A stretch of 64,000 nt of DNA from a virus (Duplodnaviria; Heunggongvirae; Uroviricota; Caudoviricetes): the IMG/VR virus record IMGVR_UViG_2861084961_000001; one strand, 5' to 3'. Positions within the stretch are counted from its first letter, which is position 1. The number at the start of each line of letters is the position of its first letter. Shown here one piece after another: positions 4,431 to 33,475 of this stretch. Below the pieces are notes generated by a model that did no database searches, had not been told where the DNA came from, and saw nothing but the letters and a program-made list of their open reading frames with translations. A program made the translations under genes and the position numbers.

Positions 4431-7400
4431 ATGAAGGCTCTGATGGTTCGAACTGACTTCTCTCTTGGGGAGTCGGCTCTAAAAGCAGAAAACGCGGTGA
4501 AGATTGCCAGAGAAGCTGGCTACACCGCTGTAATTTCGGCAGATAGCATGAATATTGCGAGTGTTATTCCACTACAACGTGCCGCTGGTGACGACATGGC
4601 GGTTATTTGTGGTGTGAAACTAAACATTGTTGATGATCCCACATACGAGCACCGGGCTAAACTTGCTAAAGAGTCTATGGGATGTATGGAATCATTAGAG
4701 CGTGGGCGGAACTACTCCTTTACCGCTCTAATTAAAAATGAGCAGGGATATCGAGACATCTGCGAACTAATGACGGCGGCCAACACACGAGAACAGTTCT
4801 ACTTTGTACCGCGTCTCTCGCTCGAACAGTTGGTTTCTACATATGCCAAAGGCAACATCATCCTGCTAACTTCCGACATCGGTAGCGTGTTCCAACGCAA
4901 CGATTTTGCAAAAATCATAAGCTCACTGATTACAGCGGGTGGAAAAGACAACTTCTATAGTGTGGTTTATCCGCACCCTACCCATTCTACGACCAGATTA
5001 ACGTCCGGGCGATGAAAGTCGCCAGCGCACTGAAAATAGAGCCAGTAGCGTTCTATCCCGCTTATTACGAATCGATCGACGATGCAGACATTAAAGACAT
5101 TGCGCACATGGTTACGAACAACATCAAAATCGACCAGCCGCATCGTCTGCGTATCCCCACCAGCGAGATAACGCCGTCAATTGTCGCCGCCATCTCCTTG
5201 AGGCGCTGAAAGCCTTCTCCGTTCGCATGGATGTGCCGGTAACAGCTGCAATGGCCTCAACAACGCAGGATACCATTATCGATGCCTGCACATGGCGCTG
5301 GCATGAATTGCCACCAGCACTGCCAAAGATGGCAGACGACGAGCCTGCAACTCTGATGAAACTGGCCGTTGCTGGGCTGCGTAAACGTCTTACCACAAAA
5401 GAGTTTGGCTACACACCACCGGCTTCTGAGAACAGGGTTTATGTTGAGCGACTTAAGTACGAAATGGATACGCTGACTCGCCTGGGATTCTGTGGTTACT
5501 TCCTGATGGTGCGCGATCTGATGAATCATAGTCGTGAAACTGGCATTCCCGTTGGGCCTGGTCGTGGTTCCTCTGCTGGCTCTTTGGTGGCATGGTGCAT
5601 AGGCATAACCAACGTCGACCCAATCCGTCACGGTCTTCTGTTTGAACGTTTCATCAACCCTGAGCGTCTCGACTTGCCGGATGCGGATTTGGACTTCAGC
5701 CAGGCACGTCGCCATGAAGTGATCGAGTATCTGAATGAACGCTACGGCGAAGATTACGTTGCGGGTATTCCGAACTTCACATATCTGGGCGCAGCCTCTG
5801 CACTACGTGACACCGCTCGTATTTATGGTGTGGAGTCCGCAGATATGGCGGTATCAAAGAACTGAAGAACGTCGAGGATGATAGCCTTCCATTGGAAGAA
5901 CTGCGCGAACAACTGGCAAGTCTCGACAAATACGCAACAAAATATCCTGATGCATTCAATGCAGCCTGCAAGTTACAAAGCCTTATGCGTGGCTTTGGTA
6001 GACATGCGGCAGGGATGATCGTAGCAGGTGTTCCTCTGACAGAACGTACACCGGTTGAACGACGTGGTGACGCGCGTTGTATCGCATTTGACAAGCGTTA
6101 CTGCGAGGCTATGGGCCTAATTAAGCTGGACGTGCTTGGCCTGGCAACTCTCGATTTGCTCGATAGTGCAAAACGCTACATAAAAGAGAACACAGGTGAA
6201 GATATCAATCTTGATGCCATTTCTCTTGAAGATCGCAAGGTGCTGGATGGTTTTGCTGCTGGGTACACTCAAGGTGTTTTCCAGCTTGAATCAGGCCCAA
6301 TGCGCAAGCTGCTTAAAGATTTAGGTGGTGGAATTGAGCCAATGAGCTTTAAAACGGTCGTCGCTACGACTGCGCTCTTCCGGCCGGGGCCAATTCAGTC
6401 AGGCATGTTGGATGACTATGTTTCTGTAGCCAAAGGCTTTATGAAGCCGGAATCATTACACCCCGTTCTTGATGAACTTACCGCAGAAACAAATGGCGTG
6501 ATTCTCTATCAGGAACAGACGATGAACGCGACTCGATTGCTTGCTGGCTTCACAATGGCTGAAGCTGACGGTGTTCGTAAAGCGATCGGCAAAAAGGACA
6601 TGGAAAAATGAAGAGCATGGGCGAGAAGTTCATCGTTCAGGCTCAAGCTGGCTGGATAGACGTTGAGCTGGAAGATGGCACTACACAGCGCATTCACCGT
6701 GCGGAACATTTTAAATGCGAAGACGGAACTCTGAAAACTGTCGAAGAGGCACTTGAGTACGGCGCAAAACTACCTATAAACGCAGTACGCGTTACAGCGT
6801 CACATCCAGGGCTATCAGAGATGAAAGCGAAGGAGATCTGGACCGCATTCGAAAAAAATGGAGCCTACCAGTTCAACAAATCACACTCTGTTGCTTACTC
6901 CTTAATCAGTTATCAATCTATGTGGTTGAAAACTCATTATCCCGCAGAGTTTTCGCTGCTGCTCTCACTATTCTTGGCGAAGATAAACACCAGGGGCTGG
7001 TTAAAGATGCGCTGACCTATGGTATTCGCGTATTGCCACCAGACGTTAACGTGTCATCTAACCGAATCGAGATCCGCACGCTTGAAGATGGCAGCCAGGT
7101 GCTGTATGCGCCCTTCTCTGCTGTGAAGGGGTGTTCTGAGAATGGCTGCCAGGCCATCATGAGAGCGCGAGAAAGGGTTGGCGGCAAATTCGAGTCACTG
7201 GCGCAATTCGAAGAAGCTGTCGAGAAACGTGCCTGTAATAGTCGAGTGCGCGAATCACTGCAAAAAGTAGGTGCGTTTGCGTCCATAGAGCCAGGTAGTC
7301 TGCCAGCAACTGATCCAGAGCGTCTCCGCGACCAAGCAGAATTGATGGGAAACCTTGTCATAGATGCAGTTAAAGCCTCACGTCCGTTTGAGATGAACCC

Positions 7401-7506
7401 CAAACGTTCGGCTGAGATTAACGTGCTCATGACACGGATGGCGGCTGAAATGGGCTTAGGTGATGAACTAATCCGCCCAGCATTGGTATTAAGCCGAAAA
7501 TCATGA
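4431..7506 (+). CDS. dnaE: DNA polymerase III alpha (DnaE-like), fragmented into six ORF pieces by frameshifts
   Basis: PHP domain at N-terminus; motifs GIPVGPGRGSSAGSLVAWCIGIT, GHAAGMIV, KLDVLGL, GVFQLES, ALFRPGP, ILYQEQ, YQFNKSHSVAYSLISYQSMWLKTHYPAEF in successive ORFs 4431..5015, 5012..5209, 5227..5865, 5892..6611, 6608..7015, 6922..7506. Confidence 0.75.
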
Positions 7507-7943
7507 TCATTCTGGACAATGCGAACGGCAATGATGCTCGAACCGGTTACTTCATGGAGAACGGATACGACGATTTTAAGGCCAAGCTATTGACGGCTGG
7601 AGATTTACGCATGGGCGATCTCTATGTCACAGGCGTTTGCAAAAAGGTGAAAGACAAAGAAAAGGACTACACCAAAGACGAGATCGGCCAGTTCACCGAC
7701 TTTATGCGTGAAGAGATCAATCTGGTGCGTCCGACCTATGTGCTGACGTGTGGCAGCCGGGCAACGGCATTGTTTAACAACAAAAACAAGCCATCCGATT
7801 TGGTCGGCAGGAAGGAGTATCTTCCAGACCTTGACGTTACTGTCTTTTACGGGTTTAACCCCAACATTCTTTACTTCAGACCTGAAGAGGGAGAACGACT
7901 AGAAGCGATATTAGCCGACGTAGCAGAAACTATTAAGACGTGA
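7503..7943 (+). CDS. uracil-DNA glycosylase-fold (family 4-like) protein, possibly fused to DnaE in the true sequence
   Basis: Weak pattern match to UDG family 4 blocks (YVTGVCKK, LVRPTYVLTCGSRATALF, FYGFNPNILYFRP); no Fe-S cysteines. Confidence 0.35.
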   Translation: MIILDNANGNDARTGYFMENGYDDFKAKLLTAGDLRMGDLYVTGVCKKVKDKEKDYTKDEIGQFTDFMREEINLVRPTYVLTCGSRATALFNNKNKPSDLVGRKEYLPDLDVTVFYGFNPNILYFRPEEGERLEAILADVAETIKT

Positions 7944-8046
7944 TCCAATAAACATGGCCATAAAGGCCATGTTTTCCCTTATCCCCTCACATCCCCCTAT
8001 CTTCAAGCTCATTGCCTCATCATTACAATGATATAATCAATACAAA

Positions 8047-8502
8047 ATGATAAGTGATAAGGAAATGCGCATGATCGCCGATATTTACGAGAAAATAATG
8101 TCTGATCTCGAGTTTGACCGAGACAATCTGGAAGAAGTCTGGCGTAGACAACCCCGCCTGTTGATGGAATATGGCTCAAAACTCGCTCATGCAGAAAAAA
8201 GTGTCGCAGAGGCAAAACTTAACCTTGAAGCTGTTGAAGCAAAGCTATACGACACAGAGCGTAAGAACTTGAGTATGAACGGCATTAAGTTCAACGAGTC
8301 TGTACTGGACGCTAAGGTTAAAACAAACCCACAGTATCTGTCTAAACGGCAGAAGTTGGATGAAGCACGGCACATCGCAGACATATACAAACATGCTGTC
8401 GCCGCCTTTTCGCATCGCCGAGACATGATCGTTCAGGCGTCGAAGATGGCCATTGTTGAATTGGAGCGATTAGGCTCCGAACGCTTTATTACTCCCCGTT
8501 GA
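8047..8502 (+). CDS. hypothetical protein (151 aa), coiled-coil rich
   Basis: ORF track; no motif. Confidence 0.4.
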   Translation: MISDKEMRMIADIYEKIMSDLEFDRDNLEEVWRRQPRLLMEYGSKLAHAEKSVAEAKLNLEAVEAKLYDTERKNLSMNGIKFNESVLDAKVKTNPQYLSKRQKLDEARHIADIYKHAVAAFSHRRDMIVQASKMAIVELERLGSERFITPR

Positions 8503-8619: not shown

Positions 8620-9648
8620 ATGTCTAAGACATTACTTGATTTGCTTAACAAAACTCGTGAAGACATTGCCGCCAAACGTGGTAACAACGTTGATCTGACT
8701 CGCTTAAAAGATGGCGTCAACTATATCCGTATCTTCCCGAATAAGGACGACCCAAACGGTAAGTTCTTCCAGACTTTCGGTATGCACTACGTTAAGTATC
8801 AGAACGAGGACGGTAAAGAAGCAACCAACGCTTATATTTGTGAGCAACATACTCACGGTCGCGCTTGTCAGCTATGCGAAATGGTGATGGAAGGTCGCGC
8901 TCGTCACAAGGGTAACAAAGCAATGGAAGAACGCATCGGTCAAATGCGTGCCACTCCTCGCTACCTGGTCAACGGCATTCTTTCAGCTCGTGAGGATTTC
9001 GCCGATGCAGAGAAATGCCAGTTAATCGAACTGCCTTCCACTGTATTCGATGATATCTGCAAAGCAATCACCGAAGACATCGCTGATGATATCGGTAATC
9101 CACTGAGCAAAGAGGAAGGCTACGCATTCCTGATTAAACGTACTGGCTCTGGTCGCGATACCAAATATGACGTCTCGCCTAAGCGTAAAGTCTACAAAGG
9201 CGATATCGAAGATAAATTCTGGAATACCCAGCATGATCTGATCGCATACGCAAATCAGGCTGATGAAACTCGTCTTCTCTCGACAGTTCGCACTATGGGC
9301 CGTCTGATTGGCATCGCAGCACCAACTGCCTCTGCATCTGCACCAGCAATTTCCTCTACCGCGAAAACATCGGCCGCGGCACTGCCTGGATTTGGCTCTG
9401 TCACTGGTCATACGGAGGGTGCGACTGCTGTAGCAACCGCTCACACCCCAGCATCTGAACCAACCAGTCTGGTTGATGAAGAAATCCTCCGAGCCGTTGA
9501 AACTGAATTTAAACCAGAGGCAAGTTCCGCTGCCGTTGCCGTATCAGTCAAAGAGTCTGAAGCAGTCGCAGCGACATCTGTAGCAGCCGCATCTGCGACG
9601 GAAGATGAAGGTCTGGATGATCTACTGAGAGAGCTTGACTCTCTGTAA
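8620..9648 (+). CDS. putative ssDNA-binding protein (Zn-binding Cys/His cluster, Ala-rich linker, acidic C-terminal tail)
   Basis: CEQHTHGRACQLCE cluster and terminal EDEGLDDLLRELDSL; AGGAGAAACACATG start context; position among replication genes. Confidence 0.35.
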   Translation: MSKTLLDLLNKTREDIAAKRGNNVDLTRLKDGVNYIRIFPNKDDPNGKFFQTFGMHYVKYQNEDGKEATNAYICEQHTHGRACQLCEMVMEGRARHKGNKAMEERIGQMRATPRYLVNGILSAREDFADAEKCQLIELPSTVFDDICKAITEDIADDIGNPLSKEEGYAFLIKRTGSGRDTKYDVSPKRKVYKGDIEDKFWNTQHDLIAYANQADETRLLSTVRTMGRLIGIAAPTASASAPAISSTAKTSAAALPGFGSVTGHTEGATAVATAHTPASEPTSLVDEEILRAVETEFKPEASSAAVAVSVKESEAVAATSVAAASATEDEGLDDLLRELDSL

Positions 9649-9708: not shown

Positions 9709-10653
9709 GTGAATTATCTCTTCGTAGATGGCAATAGCCTGGGTTATTACCACCAACAATCTGACAAATTGCACAACGGCGAAATGGAAGTACAGGCTGC
9801 TTTCGGCTTTGTTAAGAACGTCCGTCGTTATGCCTCCATCCTCCATGCCCGACCTATGATTCTTTGGGATGGATTTAGTGACAAGCGTCGCGACTTTTAC
9901 CCGGACTACAAAGCAAATCGCGACGACGATCCTGATATGAAAAAGATGAAGGAAGGCTTTGCTATCCAGAAGCCATACATCCTCAAAATGATGACCGCGC
10001 TTGGAGTTACCCAACTCATTGCAAAAGATGCAGAAGCGGATGATCTGGCCGGGCTGCTGGTATCCCGCATGGCACCGCAGCCAACCGTTGAACACATCTA
10101 TCTGTTAACAGGCGATAGCGACTGGCTTCAGTTAGTTCGTGAAAACGTAAGCTGGGTAAGCCTGCGTGAAGACGCCAAAAACAAGCAGGTTAATTTTGAG
10201 CAATTTGCGAAGCTGACAGGATTCGCCACGCCTCGCGCATTTTTGGAAGCAAAAGCATTACAAGGCGATAACTCGGACAACATTAGCGGTGTTGGTGGCA
10301 TTGGTGCTGGCGGTGCGAAAGAGCTGCTGCATGAATGGGGAAGTGTCGCAACGATGGTACGCGGCATCAACGACGGCTCAATCGTGGTTAATAAAGGGCG
10401 TCATAAGACCGCCTTCAACAAACTAGCGAAGAATGCCTTCAACGAGAAAACAGGCTGTCGAATGCTCGAAGCGTTCAAGAGAAACATCACGCTAATGAAC
10501 CTGATTGAGACGAAGTTTCCGCCTACCGAAATCGAAACAATCAAAGGCAATCGTGACGTGAAAGCATTCGAGCAACTGTGCTACGAGCTGAATTTCCGTT
10601 CGTTCCTTGAAGACCTTGAAGTGTTTGTTCTTCCATTCGAAAGGTATTGCTAA
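9709..10653 (+). CDS. 5-prime to 3-prime exonuclease / flap endonuclease (PIN plus H3TH)
   Basis: LFVDGNSLGYY, DGFSDKRRDFYPDYKANR, LLTGDSDWLQL, GDNSDNISGVGGIG; start moved to in-frame GTG 9709 after the terminator with GGAAGGA RBS (track ORF 9658..10653). Confidence 0.65.
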   Translation: MNYLFVDGNSLGYYHQQSDKLHNGEMEVQAAFGFVKNVRRYASILHARPMILWDGFSDKRRDFYPDYKANRDDDPDMKKMKEGFAIQKPYILKMMTALGVTQLIAKDAEADDLAGLLVSRMAPQPTVEHIYLLTGDSDWLQLVRENVSWVSLREDAKNKQVNFEQFAKLTGFATPRAFLEAKALQGDNSDNISGVGGIGAGGAKELLHEWGSVATMVRGINDGSIVVNKGRHKTAFNKLAKNAFNEKTGCRMLEAFKRNITLMNLIETKFPPTEIETIKGNRDVKAFEQLCYELNFRSFLEDLEVFVLPFERYC

Positions 10654-10921: not shown

Positions 10922-11995
10922 ATGGCAAAAGGAAAATCCGCACTGGCACTTGCTCTGAAAAAGAAAATCGGTAGCAACGACGAAATTCAGAAAGTAACTC
11001 ATTGGATTGACACAGGCTTTCCTCCGTTAAACAAAGCTATTTCCGGTCGTTACGATGGCGGTTTCCCATGTGGTCGTATCGTCGAAGTATTCGGGCCGCC
11101 AAGCGCGGGGAAAACTTTTTTGGCAACGGCAGCAATGATCTCCGCTCAGAAACAAGATGGCCTGGCGGTATTCCTCGATCATGAGAACAGTTTTGACGTT
11201 GGCCTGGCTGTCGCCAATGGTCTGAACGCAGATGAGGATGACGGCCAGTGGGTATACAAGCAGCCTGATACCTTCGAAGACTCTGTAGAGTTGATCGGCA
11301 CAATACTTAAATTGGTACGTGATGAAGAGCTTATCCCTGAATCAGCACCTATCTGTATCGTGGCTGACTCACTTGCGTCTATGGTTCCGAACTCCAAAGC
11401 CGAGAAGTTCGAAAAGATGGCTGAAGGCACTGCCAAAGACAAAGATCAGCTAAACATGAACGACAATACGGCGCTGGCTCGTGCAACGAGTGCGAACTTC
11501 CCCACTCTGGCTTTGTGGGCACGCAAATACAACGCCTGCATCATCTTCTTGAATCAGGTTCGCACAAAAATCGGTGTAATGTTTGGCGACCCTACTACGT
11601 CACCAGGCGGCGATTCACCGAAGTTTTACGCTTCTGTGCGCATCCGTCTCGGTGCATCGGTGATGAAGGATGGTAAAGAGAAGATCGGTCAGGACGTAGG
11701 CGCAGAGTGCATCAAAAACAAAGTTGCACCACCGTATGGCAAATGCACCTGGAAATTCTACTTCGATCCTACTCGTGGCCTCGACGTTATCGAGTCGCTC
11801 GTCGAGTACATGCTGGAAGAAGGATACCTGCCAAAGAACGCCAGCGGTCGAGTAGAAATTGGTGACAAGAAATACACCAAATCACAGATCGTCGAGATGT
11901 ATCGGGAGAAGCCACTAGCTGAAATCATTGCAGCTTTACAGGCAATCGACGACCGGAGAGCAAAAGATACCCCCACCGAGTCAGTAGAAGGGTAA
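10922..11995 (+). CDS. RecA-like recombinase
   Basis: Walker A GPPSAGKTFLA, 357 aa, RecA-like layout. Confidence 0.6.
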   Translation: MAKGKSALALALKKKIGSNDEIQKVTHWIDTGFPPLNKAISGRYDGGFPCGRIVEVFGPPSAGKTFLATAAMISAQKQDGLAVFLDHENSFDVGLAVANGLNADEDDGQWVYKQPDTFEDSVELIGTILKLVRDEELIPESAPICIVADSLASMVPNSKAEKFEKMAEGTAKDKDQLNMNDNTALARATSANFPTLALWARKYNACIIFLNQVRTKIGVMFGDPTTSPGGDSPKFYASVRIRLGASVMKDGKEKIGQDVGAECIKNKVAPPYGKCTWKFYFDPTRGLDVIESLVEYMLEEGYLPKNASGRVEIGDKKYTKSQIVEMYREKPLAEIIAALQAIDDRRAKDTPTESVEG

Positions 11996-17663: not shown

Positions 17664-18195
17664 CACCGCTGACAGCATACACAATCAACTGCCGCTGATA
17701 GCATATCGAGAGTCTATCTCACCGCTCACAGCATACTTTACTCGATTTTTACCGCTGACAGCATACTTAAGGCATTGCATGAATAATGTGTACCGGTATG
17801 GGTATAACCAGAACAAAATTACCGCTGGCAGCATACGAAGGTCTGACATATGCCATTAATTACCGCTGATAGCATATCCAAACAAAATTCCTCAATAAAA
17901 CACCGCTGACAGCATACGTTCTATCAGGGAGCAGCAGGCAATAAATGCCTTTCACTACAAGTAATCAGCGCAATGGCAATAGAATGTTAGTGAGCGCAAA
18001 CCTATATGGAATGCACTCTTCGAGGTTAGTAACCACTGGGGAGGTATAAAAGAGCATTGAGTGGTGATAGATGATTTACCGCTCACGGCATACGTTCATC
18101 TCACTATACCGCTGGTAGCATATCTTTAACCGTTCACAGCATACTTTTCAGAAAAATAGCCGCTGATAGCATACATTTCACCGCTGACAGCATAT
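17664..18195. repeat. iteron array: 12 direct copies of CCGCTGACAGCATAC-like 15-16 bp repeats downstream of repA (incA-like copy-control locus)
   Basis: Copies near 17666, 17692, 17722, 17752, 17822, 17863, 17903, 18079, 18109, 18130, 18160, 18181, same orientation. Confidence 0.8.
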
Positions 18196-19309: not shown

Positions 19310-19410
19310 CCGCTGACAGCATACTTGATTTGCCGCTGGCAGCATACCAAAAACAGTTGGCAGCATACGGCGAACCGTTGACAGACTATCAATTACCGCT
19401 GGCAGCATAC
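19310..19410. repeat. five iterons of the same family spaced about 21 bp upstream of repA (origin)
   Basis: Copies near 19310, 19334, 19354, 19374 (degenerate), 19396. Confidence 0.8.
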
Positions 19411-20507: not shown

Positions 20508-21409
20508 ATGACTTTGCCATACGGCGTCATTTCTGACTGCCACTACCACAAATGGGATGCGTTCTCCACGACGAACGCTGAGGGGCTTAACTCCAGACTT
20601 GAAATACAGTTGGAAGCAACGAAAGAAGCAGCCATCGCCATGAAGAAGGCCGGTTGTAAGTACATGTTGGTTGCCGGTGATACATTTCACGTCCGAGGAA
20701 CTGTGTCCCCTTCTGTTTTGCATTACGTAACTGAAACGTACAAGTGGATTATCAACGAGCTTGATCTGACAGTAGTAATGCTGGCCGGTAATCACGATCT
20801 TGAAACCAACGATTCAGTATATAGCGCCAACGCAGCAGCATCGCTGAGTTCTATCGGCGTGGTAATCGTATGTGGCAAGCGCCCACACTCAATAAAAATT
20901 GGTGATGTCACTGTCCACCTGATTAGCTGGCGTAACAATCATGCGGAGCTTATCAGCGATCTGAAAGCATTACGTAAGAGCGTAGAAGGTGATAATCATG
21001 ACGTTGTTATCCATACATCCATTAACAAAGCCATTCCAACAATGCCTGACGTCGGTATCGATGCGCAGGAGTTAAAGGATATCGGCTTTCGTCTCGTGCT
21101 TAGTGGGCATTACCACAACCACAAAGAGGTCATTCCTGGAGTTATCAGTGTCGGTGCACTGACCATCAAAATTGGGGAGATGTTGGATCTCTGGCTGGTT
21201 ACATGATCGTAAACCCGGACGGCAGTTTCAGTCACTACGAAACCAGTGCGCCTAAATTCATTAACCTGGAAGATTATGTTGCCGATGATCAAATTCGCGG
21301 CAACTACGTGCGTTTCCGCGCCGTAATGAGAACGATGAAGAAGGCATTAAGTACCAGAACATCCTCAAAACAATGGGTGCAAAGGTGTTGTGTGCAACTT
21401 CATCCGTAA
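20508..21409 (+). CDS. SbcD/Mre11-like nuclease (calcineurin-like phosphoesterase), frameshift near 21195
   Basis: SDCHYH, AGDTFH, LAGNHD, SGHYHNH; CAAAGGAAAAACACATG start context. Confidence 0.65.
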
Positions 21410-21823
21410 GTCATCAATGATGGAAGGGACAGCAAGCACAACGGAAACCAGCAAAATCGATAGCCTGGGAGAGTCGGTATCTGCTTATTGCAAGATTGTC
21501 CACGATACTGACGGCGGATTTGATCTGAGCAAGTTGGATATTTTGTGTCAGGAAATCCTCACCGAAGCGGAGAGTTCGGAGGCTGTGTGAGGCAAAGTCG
21601 TTATGGGAGCTTTCGAGACTTTGCCATCACGATGAAAAGACTTGAACGAGGCCAGACGGTGATGTTTCACAAGCCCTACCCGCCACAAGGAAATCCCGTA
21701 GCGTTTTATCTTGGAAGGTTAACCAGAAAAGGCGTATTGAGGCGCAGATCCTTCCCGGCGCATACGGAGTTCAGATTGAAAGAAGGTCAAAAGCTAACAC
21801 ACGGTATCAAAGGTGTTATATGA
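21390..21823 (+). CDS. uncertain ORF fragments, possibly the C-terminal part of the SbcD-like protein
   Basis: ORFs 21390..21590 and 21545..21823 in alternating frames. Confidence 0.2.
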
Positions 21824-23733
21824 AGTTTTTAAAACTCCAGGTTGAGAATTTTATGGCTATCGCCAGCGCGGAGGTCGAGTTAGATCAGCGTGGTTTAGTG
21901 CTAATTCAGGGCATTAATAGTGATGATAGTTCCGCATCAAGTAATGGCTCTGGAAAGTCAACTCTAATGAATAGCCTGATGTGGTGTCTTTATGGCGAAA
22001 CAGCTCATGGTGTGAAGGGTGACGATGTGTTGTCTACCGACCATGAAAAGAACTGTCGTGTTGCAGTAACCATCGAGGATGAAGGCAAGAGATATGCGAT
22101 CATTCGTCACCGTAACACAAAGAGTTCAAAAATCGTCTTATCGTTCGTGGTGAAGATGGCGATATGACGAAAGGCAAAGATGCGCTGACGCAGGAGTTCG
22201 TCGAGCGTCTGATCGGTGCATCTAAAGAGGTTTTCATGGCTTCCATCTATGCGAGCCAAGAAGCTATGCCAGATCTACCTGGAATGTCCGACAAAAACCT
22301 CAAAACCATCGTAGAAGAAGCCGCTGGCGTTGACAGACTGACACGCGCCTACGCTATTGCTCGTGAACGAGCTAACGCAGCTGCCGCACGCATGGACGTG
22401 GTTAAAACCAAATTGGAGTCGACAATCTCGACCATTGAGGCAACACAGTCAGAAATTGAGTCCGCGAAAGCCTCCTCTGAATCATGGGAACAAGAGCGTT
22501 CTAAACGTTATGACGATGCCCTAGCTGGGCTGGCAAGTGCCGAAGTTGAGTTAACGGAAGTTGAACTTGAGATCCGCACTCTTCCCGAACAGATCCGTGA
22601 TACCGAGAAGGCAATCGAAAGTGAGCGCAAAAAGTTAGCCTCAAAAGAAGAACATGATGCCAAGTTGCTCAAAGTGCGTGGTGCGATAACTGATATTCGG
22701 GCAAGCATCAAAGCTACAGAAATAGTCAGGCTGATGCAATGAGCCGCGCGCGCAATTTTAAGACCAAAGCAGAAGAGGTTGGTACTAAAGTAGGATCACC
22801 ATGCCCTACTTGTGGCAAAGCCTACTGCGAAGAAGATCTATCAACGGTGAAGGAGAATTTCATTGAACAAGCACGTCAGGAAATTGGTCAGGCGAAGACA
22901 CTTGCAGAGGCAATGGCTAAACACAAAACGAATCTTGAGAAGGCGTTAAGCATTGAGTCTGCCCTTGTTAAAACGACACCTGATGTAACGGCTATCATTG
23001 CCCGGATTGAAGAGCTTACTAAACAACTTTCATCTTTGCGTCATCGTGAGAAGGAGGTTGTTGCTATTGAGTCTCTTGTGACTCGTGCTCGTACTGAGGT
23101 CGATCGTATATCAAAAGAGATTAATCCGTTTATTGCTCTTATCGCCAGACACGAAGATAACCTGGTATCCAGTAAGTCTACCTTCAAGTCCTTAAAAGAT
23201 GAGTTGAAGGCTATTCAGGAACAAACGTTGCTATTGGAAAAAGCTCGTCAGGTCTACTCTCCTGCCGGGGTGCGTTCTCATATTTTGACGTCTGTTACGC
23301 CTTTCCTGAATACACGCACTGCCGAGTATCTCAATACGTTGTCTGACGGGAATATTACTGCTGAGTGGTCGACGATGGATGTCACTAAAAAGGTGAGTAT
23401 CGCGACAAATTCAACATTAGTGTGCAGAAGAAAGGTTCAAGTAAGTCGTTCCAAACCCTCTCTGGTGGTGAGAAGCGGAAGGTTCGCATTGCGTGTTCTT
23501 TGGCATTGCAGGATCTGGTTAGTAACCGGGCGAGTAAAAACATCGATTTGTTTATCGGCGACGAAATTGACGATGCACTCGATACAGCCGGTCTTGAACG
23601 CCTCATGGGTATTCTGGAGTCCAAAGCTCGCGAGCGAGGTACTGTGCTGATTATCTCCCATAAAGAGATGAAGTCATGGTTCCGGGAAACTATTACGCTG
23701 GAAGTTAAAGAGGGGCGCAGCTATGTCGTTTAA
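21820..23733 (+). CDS. SbcC/Rad50-like ATPase, split in four ORF pieces
   Basis: N-terminal FLKLQVENFMAI...GINSDDSSASSNGSGKSTLMNSLMWCLYGE, coiled-coil middle, C-terminal FQTLSGGEKRKVRIACSLAL...LFIGDEIDDALD; ORFs 21820..22167, 22164..22742, 22739..23650, 23422..23733. Confidence 0.65.
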
Positions 23734-24465: not shown

Positions 24466-24511
24466 GGAGACTATATGAGTAAAAAATCAGCGTAGTTGGT
24501 GTTGATCCTCA

Positions 24512-25041
24512 ATGAGTAACTTTGGGCTTGCTGTGGGCACTTTAGACCTTGAAACGGACGAACTTGAGATTCACGGCCTTACTCTTGTTGAGACTAAAGC
24601 GGGGAGTAACAAAAAGACAGTTCGTGTGAACAGCGACGATCTGCGCCGTGCCAGTGAAATATGGCGTGTTGCGAAGCCAATCATTGATAAGGCAAATATG
24701 GTTTTTTGTGAGCTACCGGTTGGGAGCCAAACTCTCGTTCGCAGACGTCTTACGGAATTTGTATCGGTGTACTTGCGTGTGTGGATAAGCCATTGATCCA
24801 GGTTACTCCAAACGAAATTAAGCATTTTGTCGGCAATAAACTTACTACATCGAAAGAAGAGATTATCCAGTGGGCTACGAAAAAACACCCTAAAGCACCG
24901 TGGCTGCGTCGTAAGCAATCTGGACAGGATGTTCTCGTGAACAAAAACGAACATTTGGCTGATGCGGTGGCTGCCATCCATACCGGTATGCAAACGGATC
25001 AGTTCCGCCAGGTGCGCGATGTTCTTAAGTCTCTCATTTGA
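24512..25041 (+). CDS. RuvC-like Holliday junction resolvase (frameshift near 24785)
   Basis: N-terminal LAVGTLDLETDE and C-terminal NEHLADAVAAIHTG resemble RuvC blocks; ORFs 24512..24796 and 24781..25041. Confidence 0.4.
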
Positions 25042-25114: not shown

Positions 25115-27430
25115 ATGATAAGCATCGTAAAACGTAACGGCCAAACAGAGCCGTTATCCGAAGAAAAATACAACCGCGTCGTAATGTATGGCGTAGAAGG
25201 CATTCGTGGTGTAAGCGCATCCGCTGTAGCAATGGGAGCTGCGGCCAGCATTTTTGATGGGATTACCACCAGCCAGTTGCATGAGGCTTTGGTTAAATCT
25301 GCCGCTGATTTGATCTCACCAGATGCACCAAATTACTCACAGGTGGCTGCCCGCCTGAACATTTTTAAAATCCGCAAAGATGCCTTCGGTCGTTACGACT
25401 ATCCGAACTTCTACCAACACATTGTCAAGAACGTTAACAAGGGCGTTTATGACAAGGATTTGCTGACACATTATTCGTTTGAAGAGATCGAAGAACTCGG
25501 CAATTACATTAAGCCTAAACGTGACGATCTTTTTGGCTATGCAGCTACGGTGCAATTGCAAAGCAAATACCTCGTTCAAAACCGTGTTACTGGTGAGATT
25601 CATGAGGGGCCGCAACATATCTATATGCTGGTAGGCATGTGTCTGTTCCAGAATTGGGAAGACGACTGCGCTGGCAAAACACGTATGGAGATGGTCAAAG
25701 GTTTCTATGACGTTACAAGTACGTTCAAACTGTCTCTGCCCACACCAATCATGGCCGGCGTCCGTACTCCAACCCGTCAGTTCTCCAGTTGTGTGCTGAT
25801 TGAGTCTGGCGATAGTCTGAAAGGGATTAGCGCAGCTTCAGCCGCAATTATCGACTACGTTTCACGTCGTGCTGGAATTGGTATTGGTTTTGGCCGTATC
25901 CGTGCGCTGGGCAGTGAGATCCGCAATGGTGAAGCCACCCATACCGGAGTTATTCCATTCCTGAAGCATTTCCAGACGGCTGTTAAATCTTGCTCGCAAG
26001 GTGGTGTCCGTGGTGGCGCAGCAACAGCGTTTTACCCGATTTGGCATCTTGAAGTTGAAAGTCTGCTGGTGGTGAAAAATAACCGTGGTATCGATGAAAA
26101 CCGCGTTCGCCATCTTGATTACGGTGTCATGAGTAACCGTCTGATGTACCGTCGACTCGTCAGAAGCGAGAACATCACTCTGTTCAGCCCGCATGATGTG
26201 CCTGATATGTACGAAGCCTTCTTCACAGACCAGGATCTGTTTGAAAAGCTGTACCATAAATACGAAGCCGATGATTCAATTCGCAAGAAGTCAGTGCCTG
26301 CCATTGAGCTGTTCTCATCTCTGATGCAGGAACGAGCGTCCACGGGCCGAATTTATATTGCGAACGTCGATCATATTAACGAGCATGGCGCTTTCATTCC
26401 TGCTCTTGCACCTGTCCGCCAGTCAAACCTGTGTATGGAGATCACCCTACCCACCCGTCCACTGACATTTACCGACGACCCGAACGGTGAGATCGCGCTT
26501 TGCACTTTATCCGCTTTTAACCTCGGAGCCATCCGTTCACTGGAGTCTCTTAAAGAGGTGGCGTTCTATGCCGTCGCTGCACTGGATTCGTTACTGGATT
26601 ATCAAGACTATCCGATGGAGGCAGCCGAAGTGCCTGCCAAAGCTCGTCGTAGCCTGGGAATCGGTGTAACCAACTTTGCTTATTACCTGGCAAAGAATGG
26701 CGTTCGTTATTCTGATACCGCTGGCAATAAACTGGTGCATGAAACGTTCGAAGCTATCCAGTATTACCTTCTCGATGCCAGCTGCCAACTTGCTGAAGCT
26801 AAAGGTGAGTGTGACTGGTTTGAGCAGACCAAATACGCAATTGGTCAGTTGCCGATCGACCATTACCGTTCTTCATTAGACGAAAGTGGTGAAACCAACT
26901 TTGAGTTAAAGATGCCGTGGGAAGAACTGCGTGAACGTATTGCAAAATTCGGTCTTCGCAACTCCACACTGACGGCACAAATGCCATGCGAGACTTCCAG
27001 CCAGATCACTAATTCCACCAACGGCATCGAACCGCCTCGTGGACCGGTGTCGGTGAAATCTTCTAAGGACGGCATCGTTAAGATGGTCGTGCCTGAGTTT
27101 GAAAAACTGAAGGAACAGTATGAATACCTGTGGGATATGCCGGACAACCGCGGCTATCTGACAAAGGTGGCGATCATCCAGAAGTTCTTTGACCAGGCTA
27201 TTTCAGCCAATACCAACTATGACCCTTCTCGCTTTGAAGGCGATAAAGTCCCAATGATGACGCTACTGTCAGATTTGCTTCTCGCCTACAAGATGGGAGT
27301 TAAAACGCTTTACTACCACAACACCAGAGATGGGGCAGGAAAGCGTGATGACGACGAACCGCAGAATCCACTGACGCAAGCTGTAGCCGTCGAGCCAGAA
27401 GATGAGTGCGACGGAGCCTGCAAAATCTGA
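25115..27430 (+). CDS. nrdA: ribonucleoside-diphosphate reductase alpha subunit (class Ia)
   Basis: 771 aa intact ORF; N-terminal ATP-cone-like region, active-site region NLCMEITLP, C-terminal CxxC tail. Confidence 0.9.
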   Translation: MISIVKRNGQTEPLSEEKYNRVVMYGVEGIRGVSASAVAMGAAASIFDGITTSQLHEALVKSAADLISPDAPNYSQVAARLNIFKIRKDAFGRYDYPNFYQHIVKNVNKGVYDKDLLTHYSFEEIEELGNYIKPKRDDLFGYAATVQLQSKYLVQNRVTGEIHEGPQHIYMLVGMCLFQNWEDDCAGKTRMEMVKGFYDVTSTFKLSLPTPIMAGVRTPTRQFSSCVLIESGDSLKGISAASAAIIDYVSRRAGIGIGFGRIRALGSEIRNGEATHTGVIPFLKHFQTAVKSCSQGGVRGGAATAFYPIWHLEVESLLVVKNNRGIDENRVRHLDYGVMSNRLMYRRLVRSENITLFSPHDVPDMYEAFFTDQDLFEKLYHKYEADDSIRKKSVPAIELFSSLMQERASTGRIYIANVDHINEHGAFIPALAPVRQSNLCMEITLPTRPLTFTDDPNGEIALCTLSAFNLGAIRSLESLKEVAFYAVAALDSLLDYQDYPMEAAEVPAKARRSLGIGVTNFAYYLAKNGVRYSDTAGNKLVHETFEAIQYYLLDASCQLAEAKGECDWFEQTKYAIGQLPIDHYRSSLDESGETNFELKMPWEELRERIAKFGLRNSTLTAQMPCETSSQITNSTNGIEPPRGPVSVKSSKDGIVKMVVPEFEKLKEQYEYLWDMPDNRGYLTKVAIIQKFFDQAISANTNYDPSRFEGDKVPMMTLLSDLLLAYKMGVKTLYYHNTRDGAGKRDDDEPQNPLTQAVAVEPEDECDGACKI

Positions 27431-27534: not shown

Positions 27535-28677
27535 ATGTCATATTCAACGTTCCGTTTGGGTGCTAATGATGCAACCAAAGAGCCTATGTTCCTCGGACAA
27601 TCTGTCAACGTGGCACGTTACGATCAGCAAAAATACCGTGATTTTGAAAAGTTGATTGAACGTCAATTGTCTTTCTTCTGGCGGCCGGAAGAAGTTGATA
27701 TTTCGAGCGATCGTATCGACTTCAACACGAAGCTGCGGGACCACGAACGTCACATTTTTCTGAGCAATCTCCGTTATCAAACGTTACTCGATTCAGTTCA
27801 GGGACGTAGCCCAAATGCAACGTTGCTGCCGCTTATCTCTATTCCTGAACTGGAAACGTGGGTTGAAACATGGTCTTTCTCTGAGACTATCCATAGCCGC
27901 AGCTACACCCACATTATTCGTGGCATGGTGGACGATCCGAGCATTGTTTTTGACGGTATTGTTACGGATGAAGAAATCATCAACCGAGCGATCAGTATCT
28001 CTGCTGAATATGACAGGCTTTATGGGATGACCTGCGAGCGCCAGTCGTTAGGTGAGAAGGAGTTTGAACGTCTGTACGTAAATGAATATGGCTGGGAGCC
28101 ATACCCTTTGCACCGTCAGCTTTTCCGCACGTTGGTGTCCATTAATGCGCTTGAGGCGATCCGTTTCTATGTAAGTTTTGCATGTACGTTTGCCTTTGGC
28201 GAACGGAAGTTGCTTGAGGGTAACACCAAAATTATGCGCTTTATTGCCCGTGATGAAGCTCTGCATTGCGAAGGAACTGAACGCATGATCCGCTTCATGC
28301 GTACCGGTCGCGAAGGTTTATTGTGGAAAGAGATTGCTGCTGATGAAGAAAATGTCATTTACGACACCATGAAATCAGTCGCCGAACAAGAAATGAACTG
28401 GGCAGACTATCTCTTCAAAGACGGTTCGATGATTGGTTTAAACGCGGATATTCTGAAGACCTATGTAAAATACCGCACCAATCTGGCTATGAATCGTCTT
28501 GGCCTGAAGGCTTTATTTCCAGAGGTTACCACCGATCCGCTGATCTGGATGAACAAGTGGTTGTTAACCGACACACTGCAAATTGCACCACAAGAGGCAG
28601 AGCAAAGCACATATCTGGTAGGTCAGATCGATTCTACCGTGGATAAGGCTTCTCTAAGCCAGTTTGCTGACCTGTAA
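27535..28677 (+). CDS. nrdB: ribonucleoside-diphosphate reductase beta subunit
   Basis: 380 aa; di-iron/tyrosyl-radical R2 pattern; start at ATG 27535 behind AAAAGGAAAAACACATG (track ORF starts at upstream TTG 27499). Confidence 0.85.
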
Positions 28678-28754: not shown

Positions 28755-29624
28755 ATGAACTTTACCAAACTGACTGACCACCTGAAACTTGCCACCGATC
28801 GACTCATTGGATTTAAACCAGAACCATATGAGTTGCATGAAGGTCATGGTGTAGCTACTGAAAGTATTTACAAGATGGTCGATCAGTTTCATGAACTCTT
28901 CCAGCATCCGAGACGCGTTATGCCGACACCAGAGCTGCTTCGTCTCCGTGCAAGCCTGATTCATGAAGAAGCTGTAGTGGAAGGTATTCCAGCCGCAATG
29001 AATGGGGATATTGAGCAACTGCTGGATGCAATGGCCGACTTTTTATACGTTGGTGTTGGTACGATGGTCGCCATCAAAGGTGGTATTTCTACCGGCATGA
29101 CCTATTACACGCAGGAACAGAGCATTGATCGCTTTATGCAGACAATTTTTGTGCCTGGTAACACTGTTTTCGATGATATGGCAATGCCATTTCAGGAAGC
29201 TCGTGAGGCGTCATGTATGCTCGAAGAGCTGGCAGATAAACTTGAGAACAAGACTGTTAAGGATTCTGAGCTGATTCAGGAACTGCGCCGTGTCATGAAC
29301 AAAATCTATGTGGCGTGCATGATGACCTATCGACTGGCTGATTTCCTCGGTATCAATGTCGTCGAGCTGGTTGGCGAAATTCATCGGTCCAACATGACAA
29401 AATTATGGCCTGCAGATGCCGAAGAGCGTCGCCATGCTGTGGCCAACTGCAAATACGACTCTTCTGACCTGGGATTTCGCCATGCTGATGGCACCGATAA
29501 GATGATCGGTTTTCGAATTTCCGATGGAAAAATTCTGAAGTCTCCAACCTATAGTGATGTCGATTTATCCTCCTTTGTTGAGCAAGCTAAAGCCTCAGCA
29601 ATGTACGGAATGATCAAAAAATAA
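28755..29624 (+). CDS. putative MazG-like nucleoside triphosphate pyrophosphohydrolase (two-lobed)
   Basis: Weak: two helical blocks with acidic clusters (LIHEEAVVEGIPAAMNGDIEQLLDAMADFLYV and LVGEIHRSNMTKL); position in nucleotide-metabolism cluster. Confidence 0.3.
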   Translation: MNFTKLTDHLKLATDRLIGFKPEPYELHEGHGVATESIYKMVDQFHELFQHPRRVMPTPELLRLRASLIHEEAVVEGIPAAMNGDIEQLLDAMADFLYVGVGTMVAIKGGISTGMTYYTQEQSIDRFMQTIFVPGNTVFDDMAMPFQEAREASCMLEELADKLENKTVKDSELIQELRRVMNKIYVACMMTYRLADFLGINVVELVGEIHRSNMTKLWPADAEERRHAVANCKYDSSDLGFRHADGTDKMIGFRISDGKILKSPTYSDVDLSSFVEQAKASAMYGMIKK

Positions 29625-29780: not shown

Positions 29781-29850
29781 CTCTGTGAGGTTTTTGTGTC
29801 ACTCCTTTTGAATCGTGAGCATACGAACGGTCAGGTAACAAACGCATCGT

Positions 29851-30898
29851 ATGCAAAAGTTATTGAGACGGTGCTTAAAGCGGCGTGCAGGCTGATGATC
29901 GCACAGGCACTGGTACTTTAAGCACCTGCTACGTTCCCTCTTACTACATGCTTACTGGTGGGACTGTGCCGCTTATTTCTGGAAAGGCGGTAAATCTTAA
30001 GCCACTACTTGTCGAACTTGAGTGGTATCTGAAAGGCACGGGTAACATCCAATTTCTCAAGGATAACGGCGTGAAGATTTGGGACGCATGGGCCGATGAG
30101 AATGGTGATTTGGGGCCGGTTTACGGCAAGCAGTGGCGTCGCTGGGAAGATACCCGCATCGTGAGCCATAGTGAGTATCTGAGCAAGATCGATACGTTCC
30201 GTGAACGCGGGTACAAAGTCGAGGGATACCTGGGTATCAGTGAAGATCGCGTAGTGCTGTCCCGTGAAATCGATCAGCTACAGCGTATTGTCGATACACT
30301 GCGCACGAACCCTACCGATCGTCGCATCATGCTTAACGCATGGAACGTAGGCGAGCTTGAGGATATGAAACTGCCACCTTGCCACTTTGTCTTCTCTTTG
30401 TGGAGTCGTGAGCTTGATTTTGAAACCCGTTTAACGATGGCAACTGACATTGGTCTTCAACACAGTCGCCTCGGTTACGAGTCTATCTATACCAAGATGC
30501 TATACGATCTGGAGATGGTCGGCAGTGTTACTGAAACTGAACTGGATGAACTTGGAATCCCCAAACGCATCCTCAACTCCTGCCTCGTACAGCGTAGCGT
30601 AGACACTTTTGTTGGTATGCCATTCAATATTGCTGGTTATGGCATTCTCACTCATTTTCTCGCGAAGATTACGGGTCACATGGCCGGTGCCTTTGTGCAT
30701 TTTGGCTTTGACGTGCATTTGTACAACAACCACATGGAAGGTGTGTGTGAGCTAATGAAACGACAGGCTCCAGAGCATTCAGATCCGGTCGTTATTTTCC
30801 CTCATGAATGGTCAGAGTTGGATGATTTCAAATGGGACGAGGTTCTAATTCTTGGCTATGCCCCTCTACCGTGGATCAAGGTTCCAGTGGCGGTGTGA
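29851..30898 (+). CDS. thyA: thymidylate synthase (frameshift in first about 12 codons)
   Basis: DRTGTGTLS, DENGDLGPVYGKQWRRW, PPCHFVFSLW, QRSVDTFVGMPFNIAGYGILTH; ATG 29851 reads 14 codons then stops, GTG-started ORF 29885..30898 carries the rest. Confidence 0.85.
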
Positions 30899-30899: not shown

Positions 30900-31313
30900 A
30901 TGGCAAGAGGTATGTATGTCTTATGCGAAATTGAAGGTGTGCTGGCAAATACCAGCCATCGTAAATCTGTATCTGACGCGGATGCAGGCCAGCTCATTGC
31001 CGGTGATGAACTCATTTTCCCCACCAGCCGTATGTTGCGTGGTTTTGCTCGCTCAGGGGCTGAAGTGGTGCTTATCAGTAGCCGCTCTGAAACTCTTGAA
31101 GCGCCCACTAAACGATGGCTGAAAGATTTTGGTGTTGATTACGACTGGCTTCATCTCGTACCGAATGGCATCAGTTATGAGAAGCATATTAAGCGCACAT
31201 TAGCGGAGCATAAAGGCGATCTGCTTATCGCTGCGCTGGTGCACGATCCTCGACTCCGTGCCGCTTTAGCTGACTCTCATCATAGACCGGTCATCTATGA
31301 GGTGGGCAAATGA
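30900..31313 (+). CDS. hypothetical protein, possibly HAD-like hydrolase fold
   Basis: ORF track 30852..31313; internal ATG 30900 directly after thyA stop; weak HAD-like blocks. Confidence 0.3.
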   Translation: MARGMYVLCEIEGVLANTSHRKSVSDADAGQLIAGDELIFPTSRMLRGFARSGAEVVLISSRSETLEAPTKRWLKDFGVDYDWLHLVPNGISYEKHIKRTLAEHKGDLLIAALVHDPRLRAALADSHHRPVIYEVGK

Positions 31314-31785
31314 AGATGATAGCTGCTGTTGGCCGTAACTATGAGATCGGCATAGCGAACGAACTGCCCTGGCGTTGTTCTACCGATCTGAAGCTATTTA
31401 AGAGACTCACCAAAAACGCCACTGTCGTTATGGGCGTAAAACGATGGAAAGTCTCAAACGTCCTCTTCCAGAGCGTCATAACCTCGTTTTGACGCGCTCT
31501 CATGGCTTTGTACCAAATGGATTCTACCCTGCTGGTGTGGATGATGTGTTGCGATTACCAGAGCCTGTGTGGGTGATTGGCGGGGAACAAATTTACTCGC
31601 TATTCATGCCGCATGTTGAAGAGATTTGGCTCTCCCACATCGGCGTTGATGTACCAAACGCTGATGCATTCTTCCCGGCAAGCATGATGCGTAACTTAGG
31701 CTTTGTGCCTGTTGAAACAGCTTATACCCAACGAGCCAGCGAGGAAGAGCCTGGCTTTTCGCAGATCGTATACAGAAGGTCGTAA
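31310..31785 (+). CDS. folA: dihydrofolate reductase (frameshift near 31440)
   Basis: MIAAVGRNYEIGIANELPWR, VVMG, LPERHNLVLTRS, WVIGGEQIY across ORFs 31310..31492 and 31444..31785. Confidence 0.75.
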
Positions 31786-32428
31786 TGGATTACCGGATTG
31801 GGATCACTGGTGCTCAGGGCAGTGGGAAAACAACCCTGGCTAAATATATCGACAAACATTACGGAATCCCTTACGTGGATGCTGGTGTCGGAAGTTTGAT
31901 GAGCCGCCTCGGTGTTCGAGTAGGTGAGTCTATGCCTCTATATGAGCGGCTTCAGATTCAAATGGAAATAGCAAAGCATATAGAGCTACTTACGCGTGGT
32001 GTTGAAGGCTTTGTTATCGATCGCACACCTGCTGATGTTATGGCCTACACGTTGGATTTGGTCGGTCATACCAATGAAGATCGGTGTATTGAGTTAGCCC
32101 TCGATATCGAAAAGTTTTGCCACAAAACTGCTATTTCAAACTTTAACGCCATTGCTGGCCTACGCCCGGAGTCGCTCTCACAGAGCGAGATTACTTGCGA
32201 TCACAACGAGCATCATTAGACCGTCTGTATGTTGCTCGTATTGATGCGTTGATGTGCGGGGAACTGACAAAAATTCACCTGCATCCGCAAAGGGGAGATC
32301 TGCAAACCTTCGTCGTTTCCAACCGATATCGCACGGTTGAAGCAAGAGCCAGATCAGTGATGAGAATGCTAGATAACGCTGTAGAAAAGATAGAAAACCG
32401 GTTCTGTGGCCGAGTGACCGTTCATTAG
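31785..32428 (+). CDS. P-loop nucleotide kinase (dNMP kinase-like), frameshift near 32200
   Basis: Walker A GITGAQGSGKTTLAKYI; ORFs 31785..32219 and 32195..32428. Confidence 0.45.
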
Positions 32429-32489
32429 AAATTGTTCGCCTCTTCTACATTGCGACAATAAAACTCTCAAAATGGGTTAAGGATAAAAA

Positions 32490-32909
32490 ATGTTTAGTGA
32501 AATGTTGCTTGAAGATGAACTGGATCGGAAAACAACAGAGGCTTTGATTCGTGTAGCGGACGAACATTCCCGGTCGCTTATGACCGATCGAGAGGCTCGT
32601 CTGGCTATTCGAGCCATATTCGAAACTGCGCAGGGGCTTGTTGGCGCACAAGTAGGTGAAGCCATTAACATCGCCATGTCTCAGTTCAGTGAAGGCAGTA
32701 AAAAGCCTCTGTTTCCTATGCATTTGATGCTGGCTGGTGGCACGGTGCTTTATATCTCTGTTTGTCTGGATAGCAACCAAATCAACATTCTCAACACAGC
32801 ATCAGGTAAGTGGAAAGATCCGATTGTCTGTGAAACCAGTGAAGAAACTTTGAAAAAAGCGGCTCAATTTGTACGTAGCGCACTACTTAAGGGCGCTAAG
32901 AAGTTGTAA
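32490..32909 (+). CDS. hypothetical protein (139 aa)
   Basis: ORF track. Confidence 0.4.
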   Translation: MFSEMLLEDELDRKTTEALIRVADEHSRSLMTDREARLAIRAIFETAQGLVGAQVGEAINIAMSQFSEGSKKPLFPMHLMLAGGTVLYISVCLDSNQINILNTASGKWKDPIVCETSEETLKKAAQFVRSALLKGAKKL

Positions 32910-32918
32910 GGAGTTCTG

Positions 32919-33475
32919 ATGACAACGATTGTTGCAGGCATCGATATCGAGTCTACGGGACTGGATTTCCTTGCTGGTCATAAAATTATTGAAATCGCAA
33001 TTACCCGCTATGAACTGGAGACACAGAGACATATTGATAGTCTGGAGATGCGTTTTAACCCTCGCAGAAACATAGATCCGAAAGCTCAAGCCGTTCATGG
33101 CATTTCATTGGAACAGCTCGCAGCTGAACCTTTGTTGTCAAATCATGCCAGCGAAATTGGCGCTTATATGGGGGCATGTAGTGCGTGGATTGCTCATAAC
33201 GGCGAAGCGTTTGATATACCATTTATTCGACACGAGTTTTCAGGGTATGGAGTAAGACTGCCAGACGTTCCTGTTATAGATACTATGTTATCGGGATTGT
33301 GGCCACAGAAGACGGTAAACGTCCCCGCCTTGAAGAGTTGGCCTTCTCTCTTGGCTTTATATACGATCATGCCAAAGCACATAGTGCCTTATATGACACA
33401 AACTTAATGATGCAATGCTTCTTTAAGGCACGTAATAAGTACGGATTTTTTAAATTACCCTCTGAAATTGTGTAA
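32919..33475 (+). CDS. DnaQ-like 3-prime to 5-prime exonuclease (DEDDh), frameshift near 33300
   Basis: Exo I GIDIESTGLD, Exo II HNGEAFDIPFI; Exo III HSALYD appears in the alternative frame after 33310. Confidence 0.65.

Follow-up and report, generated by a model that had tools for sequence, protein, structure and literature searches.

What kind of element carries a long run of replication, recombination and nucleotide-synthesis genes headed by a polymerase gene that is in pieces? The question arises from a 64,000-nucleotide stretch of DNA, here called the window, taken from the IMG/VR virus record IMGVR_UViG_2861084961_000001 (Caudoviricetes). The genes at issue occupy positions 4431-33475, bounds that are exactly the start codon of dnaE and the stop codon of a gene for a DnaQ-like exonuclease. 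An original prediction, made from the letters, saw here an unusually self-sufficient Pol III-type replicase core and deoxynucleoside triphosphate (dNTP) pathway on a plasmid-borne element. In the open reading frame (ORF) listing of the window no ORF is polymerase-sized, the dnaE interval being filled by six ORFs of 135-239 aa. We are confident in reading the region as the early DNA-metabolism region of a phage-plasmid, probably serving a plasmid mode and a lytic mode, whose fragmented genes would be a sequencing artefact.

Identity and prevalence of the element

Judged by its sequence matches, the window belongs to an Escherichia phage-plasmid of the SSU5/pHCM2 type, that is, a temperate siphovirus expected to persist as a low-copy plasmid. 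In megablast, a 20-kb query matched p09EL50 (NC_018651.1) and similar E. coli plasmids over 96% of its length at 97-98% identity, and Escherichia phage Cyrano (OV696614, the same element as pLF82) matches at 95%. Salmonella phage SSU5 has ~80% nucleotide identity over 71% of the queried 20 kb and is syntenic, so the likeness to pHCM2/SSU5-type elements raised by the original prediction is borne out. The gene order of the window is one-for-one that of the p09EL50 and Cyrano records; with p09EL50, pLF82/Cyrano and pECOH89 (SSU5_pHCM2 group), order and content are shared across the whole 64 kb at 95-98% identity. SSU5, S. Typhi pHCM2 and Y. pestis pMT1 share the backbone (DnaE with a uracil-DNA glycosylase (UDG)-like domain, RecA-like protein, SbcCD, RepA, NrdAB, ThyA and dihydrofolate reductase (DHFR)) and differ from the window in accessory genes. 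The Cyrano annotation was compared over stretches of its record within 34757-108379; siphovirus structural and packaging genes fall outside the 64-kb window.

The phage-plasmids of this family have been described in detail (PMC7969092), and the relation of pLF82 to pHCM2 and pMT1 was reported in 2010 (PMC2941450). Cyrano makes virions, is induced 39-fold by ciprofloxacin, is kept at ~5.5 copies per cell, and has a predicted siphovirus morphology with a 1,525-aa tape measure protein (PMC9928086). The earlier phrase 'plasmid-borne element' is therefore right about lifestyle, since these elements live as plasmids, and misses that this one would be a temperate siphovirus and not an ordinary plasmid.

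The dnaE gene has matches in 687 PLSDB plasmids, whose genera include Escherichia, Klebsiella, Enterobacter, Yersinia and Salmonella. Among 5426 complete E. coli genomes, 244 gave a match, each time on a plasmid and never on the chromosome. With such a distribution on plasmids the block is typical, not unusual as had been claimed: it is part of a conserved family genome. In gene content, gene order and domain architecture the window does not depart from the SSU5/pHCM2 family, and to that extent the finding was already known. The biological gain from a conserved, annotated block of phage-plasmids common in Enterobacteriaceae is accordingly small, and earlier work on the family has already dealt with its carriage of antibiotic resistance and with its DHFR (dfrA50/51).

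One-base deletions

New for this window are its one-base deletions. They interrupt 13 genes of the span: the nine for which Table 1 lists sites, and four others with one deletion each. Broken genes were scanned against Pfam and PHROG as translations with an X at each deletion site, and intact genes directly. In the matched phage and plasmid records, dnaE is a single 3519-nt gene for 1172 aa that starts at the equivalent of position 4431.

Sixteen related loci (L-numbers below) were retrieved from public assemblies by exact-protein look-up of the window's RecA-like protein and NrdA. Three of them, L006, L007 and L016, are 99.5-99.98% identical to the window when indels are ignored. Against L007, a Logan short-read assembly, window positions 922-13700 show four substitutions and 10 one-base deletions; within dnaE the counts are zero and six. 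Against L016 (GCA_023797875.1), positions 15115-37430 show five substitutions, 23 deletions and no insertions. Pooling the two comparisons gives 35,096 aligned columns with nine substitutions, no insertions and 33 one-base deletions. Homopolymers of at least three bases hold 31 of these 33 deletions and 15.9% of the bases (binomial p = 7e-23), and the deletion rate per run rises from 0.01% at single bases to 23-33% at runs of 6-7. The more distant p09EL50 gives the same picture, with ~30 single-base deletions among the coding differences and essentially no insertions. In all 16 relatives, where covered, dnaE, sbcCD, ruvC, thyA and the DHFR and dnaQ-like genes are uninterrupted, except for dnaE of L004, described below.

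The fragmentation of dnaE and the 12 other genes is thus almost certainly homopolymer under-calling in an unpolished assembly, and the actual element almost certainly carries these genes intact. For quality control this means that, with about one homopolymer deletion per kb, ORF- or pseudogene-based readings of the window would wrongly suggest decay, split genes and novel small ORFs.

Deletions at this density run through the whole window (for example at 1960, 3258, 4407 and 34020), unlike p09EL50. They also break a CobT-like gene (814-2921), a CobS-like gene (3017-4251), ParB/Srx and several small genes, and there are frameshifts at 62935-63742 in ParB/ABC genes.

Alternative explanations

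The same interruptions could be taken as real, in which case the window would be a decaying, defective phage-plasmid with genuine frameshifts in its polymerase, SbcCD, RuvC, RepA, ThyA, DHFR and proofreader genes, and with selection still acting on NrdAB, RecA, the single-stranded DNA (ssDNA)-binding protein and the FEN-type exonuclease. Defective phage-plasmids do occur (PMC12977533), and beside the 13 interrupted genes stand two blocks of 4-5 kb, 8066-12810 and 24729-29877, free of coding frameshifts. Selection sparing these blocks, UvsY-RecA and NrdA-MazG, was considered and rejected: a run-length error model expects 2.7-2.9 deletions per intact block, so that none would be seen with P ~0.06 each, which is not significant and compatible with chance, and substitutions are nearly absent. 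Intergenic homopolymers are hit at a similar rate. Nonsense substitutions, larger deletions and insertion sequence elements are all absent, and repA, whose loss would end plasmid maintenance, is hit as well. Genuine replication slippage also prefers homopolymers, and homopolymer bias alone would leave genuine mutation possible; the argument therefore rests on the 33:0 ratio of deletions to insertions and the 33:9 ratio of deletions to substitutions against near-identical relatives, with dnaE at 6:0 for the latter. We consider decay very improbable.

Still harder to credit is an ordinary, non-phage large plasmid that acquired chromosomal replication and nucleotide genes from an enterobacterial host, even though NrdAB score as enterobacterial class Ia equivalogs, a metG-apbC pair (48228-51519) is ~90% identical to the E. 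coli chromosome, and the MOB-suite typing of the relatives says no more than non-mobilizable plasmid. Two isolated phages that form virions, SSU5 and Cyrano, are collinear with the window, and the window's gp32, UvsX-, UvsY- and UvsW-like proteins and gp46/47-like SbcCD are phage-type. The DnaE of the window is a distinct lineage and not a copy of a host dnaE, since its C-terminus is UDG-like and its score clears the superfamily cut-off alone. Several observations do weigh against the phage-plasmid reading with its artefactual frameshifts and two modes, besides slippage. A search of three collections (phages, plasmids and complete E. coli genomes) gave no substantial match of at least 99% identity, the best for the dnaE region being 98.9%. 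DnaE has no convincing beta-clamp-binding motif downstream of its HhH domain when inspected by eye. In E. coli, residues ~190-243 of epsilon form the tail that binds alpha; on sequence inspection the DnaQ-like protein ends at ~185 aa without such a tail. In the searchable literature we found no experiment on the DnaE, DnaQ-like or recombination genes of this family, and the lytic role is assigned by analogy.

DnaE and its C-terminal domain

Homology searches agree with the original prediction on DnaE, the DnaQ-like and FEN-type exonucleases, the RecA-like protein, SbcCD, NrdAB, ThyA and DHFR. The order of domains in DnaE is PHP, Pol3 core, fingers and HhH, followed by a C-terminal domain resembling family-4 UDG. 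In a phmmer search of PDB, residues 8-953 align to Taq, E. coli and Mycobacterium tuberculosis DnaE with the catalytic aspartate motifs aligned, PDADLDF and KLDVLGL matching up with Taq DnaE. The protein passes the superfamily-level NCBIfam model TIGR00594 (629 bits, cut-off 434) and stays below the DnaE equivalog cut-offs (NF004226, 676 bits, cut-off 1002). Pfam gave no match to an OB domain or a tau-binding C-terminal domain, and homology to solved DnaE1 structures stops at residue 953. Inspected by eye, the PHP domain shows no HxH metal motif, as would fit a proofreading activity provided in trans.

Owing to the deletion at 7476, the UDG-like domain shows up in this sequence as an ORF of its own, 146 aa long. 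Its AlphaFold2 (AF2) model has pLDDT 72.8 and pTM 0.71, and every one of the top 36 Foldseek matches in PDB is a family-4 UDG or a UdgX (E 6.5e-6, TMq 0.65-0.76). Sequence matches to UDG4 are weak (TIGR00758, 27.7 bits vs cut-off 125); distant homologues of the domain carry PF03167. Family-4 enzymes have GE[A/G]PG, HP[S/A] and four Fe-S cysteines. Here motif A reads LDNAN and only two cysteines are present, both by eye, and the HMMER alignment has Asn for the motif-B His (FNPN). The model gives the domain the UDG4 fold; with the catalytic motifs degenerate, the profile score below cut-off and only two cysteines, its glycosylase activity is doubtful. Poxvirus UDG D4 is a processivity subunit. 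By analogy the degenerate domain might be a DNA-tethering or uracil-sensing module and not a repair enzyme, with DnaE and the DnaQ-like protein forming a minimal replicase that does without the host clamp and tau, a suggestion we find rather unlikely. The architecture of DnaE with a UDG-like C-terminus was published in 2014 (Timinskas et al. 2014, PMC3919608), and we found no functional work on the fusion in the literature.

Relatives also show natural splitting of dnaE. At L004 (2712-7024) a 787-aa N-terminal part, a free-standing HNH homing endonuclease (244 aa) and a 389-aa C-terminal part with the HhH and UDG-like domains follow one another. Elements of Klebsiella and Enterobacter very commonly have N-terminal halves of 785-790 aa, 1105 of which fall in a single cluster. 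This splitting by homing endonucleases suggests that the C-terminal part is also able to work as a subunit on its own. E. coli plasmid NZ_CP027369.1 is among the relatives with a naturally split dnaE, and for one E. coli plasmid the annotation of the region matched by the 20-kb query includes a LAGLIDADG endonuclease.

Limits of the replicase

The DnaQ-like protein matches phrog_192, 'DNA polymerase exonuclease subunit', at 4.9e-50 and is likely the proofreader for DnaE. Set beside the E. coli Pol III core, the alpha homologue shares PHP, Pol3, finger and HhH domains with the catalytic aspartates, and the epsilon homologue shares the DEDDh exonuclease fold; in place of the OB and tau-binding domains of E. 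coli alpha stands the UDG-like domain, and no theta was found here. Since neither the OB and tau-binding domains of DnaE nor the alpha-binding tail of the DnaQ-like protein is present, a Pol III core in the sense of an alpha-epsilon complex is something we infer from the two homologues, which are the part of the predicted 'Pol III-type replicase core' that holds.

Self-sufficiency goes too far as a description of this gene content. A search for replisome parts turned up neither a helicase of the DnaB type nor a primase, a beta clamp or a clamp loader, whether in the window or in those parts of the Cyrano record that were compared; the ORFs in the 38-47 kb and 60-62 kb intervals of the window gave only the superfamily 2 (SF2) UvsW-like helicase, an HD-domain protein and domains of unknown function. 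For replicative helicase, primase, clamp and clamp loader the element depends on the host or on unrecognised proteins.

Other genes of the region

Table 1. Features of the window with their one-base deletions and profile matches (E values unless given in bits; broken genes scanned as repaired translations).
Feature	Position	Strand	One-base deletions	Matches and remarks
dnaE, C-family DNA polymerase	4431..7943	+	~4981, 5155, 5856, 6604, 6950, 7476 (6 sites, 7 frame segments)	Pfam PHP, DNA_pol3_alpha 1.3e-73, finger, HHH_6
UDG-like C-terminal domain of DnaE	7503..7943	+		AF2 model and Foldseek; ~146 residues
UvsY-like recombination mediator (weak assignment)	8071..8502	+	intact	phrog_231 'UvsY-like' 1.6e-4
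T4 gp32-like ssDNA-binding protein	8620..9648	+	intact	Pfam gp32 1.6e-66; phrog_1192 2e-115
FEN-type 5'-3' exonuclease (T4 RNase H / Pol I 5' nuclease type)	9709..10653	+	intact	Pfam 5_3_exonuc_N 2.5e-24, 5_3_exonuc 6.2e-12; phrog_107 1.5e-63
RecA/UvsX-like recombinase	10922..11995	+	intact	Pfam RecA 2.2e-42; phrog_97 'UvsX-like' 1.2e-91
Iteron array, 12 copies of ACCGCTGACAGCATAC-like 16-mers	17665..18195	+		downstream of repA
repA, Rep3/RepB-family iteron-type initiator	18195..19408	-	~19116	Pfam Rep3_N 5.4e-9 (repaired translation); 404 aa, intact in relatives
Four further ACCGCTGACAGCATAC-type iterons	19309-19410			
SbcD/gp47-like nuclease subunit	20508..21590	+	21163, 21327, 21381	Pfam Metallophos 8.4e-10; 361 aa, intact in relatives
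SbcC/gp46-like SMC ATPase subunit	21820..23733	+	22114, 22720, 23387	AAA_23 3e-15, SMC_N 1.2e-13, SbcC_Walker_B 6.5e-4; 638 aa, intact in relatives
RuvC-like Holliday junction resolvase	24475..25041	+	24481, 24507, 24729	phrog_159 1.9e-54; 189 aa, intact in relatives
NrdA, class Ia ribonucleotide reductase alpha with ATP-cone	25115..27430	+	intact	Pfam; NF006578 1302 bits vs cut-off 813
NrdB, class Ia beta	27535..28677	+	intact	Ribonuc_red_sm 4.5e-46; NF006576 608 bits vs cut-off 346
MazG-like nucleoside triphosphate pyrophosphohydrolase	28755..29624	+	intact	PRA-PH 1.3e-8; phrog_671 1.1e-47
ThyA thymidylate synthase	29795..30898	+	29877 (cuts off first ~30 codons)	Thymidylat_synt (PF00303) 5.2e-74, 249 bits, on ORF 29885-30895; TIGR03284 205 bits vs cut-off 108; 367 aa in relatives
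Small HAD/PNKP-phosphatase-like protein (weak assignment)	30900..31313	+	intact	HAD_PNKP 4.2e-5, below cut-off; phrog_415 2.2e-8
Dihydrofolate reductase	31310..31785	+	31432	DHFR_1 (PF00186) 6.1e-33, 114 bits
P-loop nucleoside monophosphate (NMP)-kinase-fold protein	31785..32428	+	32168	Pfam AAA_28 2e-9
DnaQ-like DEDDh 3'-5' exonuclease, 185 aa	32919..33475	+	33301	Pfam RNase_T 2.8e-21
RNase HI	36218..36808	+		Pfam RNase_H (PF00075) 1.2e-44; phrog_531 2.2e-80
SF2 helicase (UvsW-like)	60613..62172	-		Pfam ResIII, DEAD, Helicase_C; phrog_16 4.5e-93
ParB homologues (partition)	62255-63599			right end of window

Recombination, repair and primer removal. Almost every gene for recombination-dependent replication and precursor supply in phage T4 has a counterpart here, the T4 set compared being gp32, UvsX, UvsY, UvsW, gp46/47, RNase H, NrdAB, td, frd and gp1. 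The replicases differ: the T4 polymerase is the B-family gp43, here replaced by a C-family DnaE with a separate DnaQ-like exonuclease, and no equivalent of the gp45 clamp, the gp44/62 loader or the gp41/61 helicase-primase was found. The T4 resolvase is endonuclease VII, whereas that of the window is RuvC-like, and of a gp1-type deoxynucleoside monophosphate (dNMP) kinase there is only the NMP-kinase-fold protein, below specific-profile cut-offs.

The predicted RuvC-like resolvase is a likely assignment, with a match to a 'RuvC-like' PHROG profile and no Pfam match at E<=0.01. RNase HI is likewise real, but it lies ~2.7 kb beyond the span in which it had been placed. In keeping with the SbcCD / Mre11-Rad50 pattern, the metallophosphoesterase and the SMC-type ATPase are encoded by neighbouring genes. 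The best PHROG match of the UvsY-like ORF is a profile without function (phrog_2058, 1.6e-68), and its Cyrano label is UvsY. The UvsW-like protein, labelled 'UvsW helicase' in Cyrano, is the only helicase found in the window. In the public assembly index, 405 blocks list a protein identical to the RecA-like one. The Cyrano RecA has 779 aa vs 357 in the window, which suggests an insertion in Cyrano.

dNTP supply. NrdA is the largest ORF in the window listing (771 aa), and both it and NrdB score above the NCBIfam class Ia equivalog cut-offs. The Cyrano record labels its thymidylate synthase ThyX, a label we reject because Pfam and NCBIfam both give ThyA. Internal insertions make the homologue ~100 residues longer than the ThyA profiles of 264-266 positions. 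By position the DHFR gene is the counterpart of dfrA51, the SSU5 DHFR gene; the DHFRs of SSU5 and of a Klebsiella phage-plasmid confer trimethoprim resistance upon expression (PMC12217456). Of the dNMP-kinase-like assignment in the original prediction the P-loop kinase fold stands, on generic models that all stay below their cut-offs, and the substrate does not: no specific dNMP or thymidylate kinase profile of Pfam or NCBIfam scored above cut-off. The best NCBIfam match was (d)CMP kinase (27.9 bits vs cut-off 102), PHROG gave 'thymidylate kinase' at 2.3e-10 and 'clamp loader' at 4.3e-11, and PDB matches covered the P-loop only.

Plasmid replication. All 16 ACCGCTGACAGCATAC-type iterons in the window flank repA, vs 0.43 expected by chance. 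The array is presumably the plasmid origin together with a copy-control or incompatibility array.

Proposed working of the module

Two modes of replication can be proposed for the region. As a plasmid, the element would be replicated by RepA (Rep3-family) bound at the iterons and presumably recruiting the host replisome, and the ParB-type genes at the right end of the window would see to partition. In the lytic mode its own DnaE may take over, with the DnaQ-like exonuclease as likely proofreader, and replication may become recombination-dependent in the style of T4 through the gp32-like protein, the UvsX-like RecA, the UvsY-like mediator, SbcCD, the UvsW-like helicase and the RuvC-like resolvase. 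The FEN-type exonuclease and RNase HI would remove primers. NrdAB, ThyA, DHFR, the MazG-like protein and the P-loop kinase would boost the precursor pool during the burst. Gene identities, synteny and prevalence are observed directly; the division of labour between modes, the alpha-epsilon complex and recombination-dependent replication are proposed from homology.

Neighbouring regions of the window

Directly upstream of dnaE, at 814-4251, a CobT-like (vWA) and CobS-like (AAA_5/MoxR) pair is kept in all relatives; its annotations vary between proteins of porphyrin and of cobalamin biosynthesis. At 15279-16070 the window has a ~0.8-kb insertion relative to p09EL50, with a P22 NinX-like gene and a small ORF; it is present in L004, L005, L008 and L009 and absent in L006 and L007. 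The stretch 45000-47800 has diverged from p09EL50, whose toprim-domain gene has no counterpart here, and the ORFs 45256-45792, 46052-46375 and 46372-46998 gave no Pfam match. There are no tRNA genes in the window; Cyrano has three upstream of the region.

At 48228-51519 lie divergent apbC (-) and metG (+) genes, both intact, resembling the chromosomal metG-apbC locus of E. coli. Complete E. coli genomes have the pair at 223 plasmid places, and it looks like an old capture of the host methionyl-tRNA synthetase locus, conserved in this phage-plasmid lineage.

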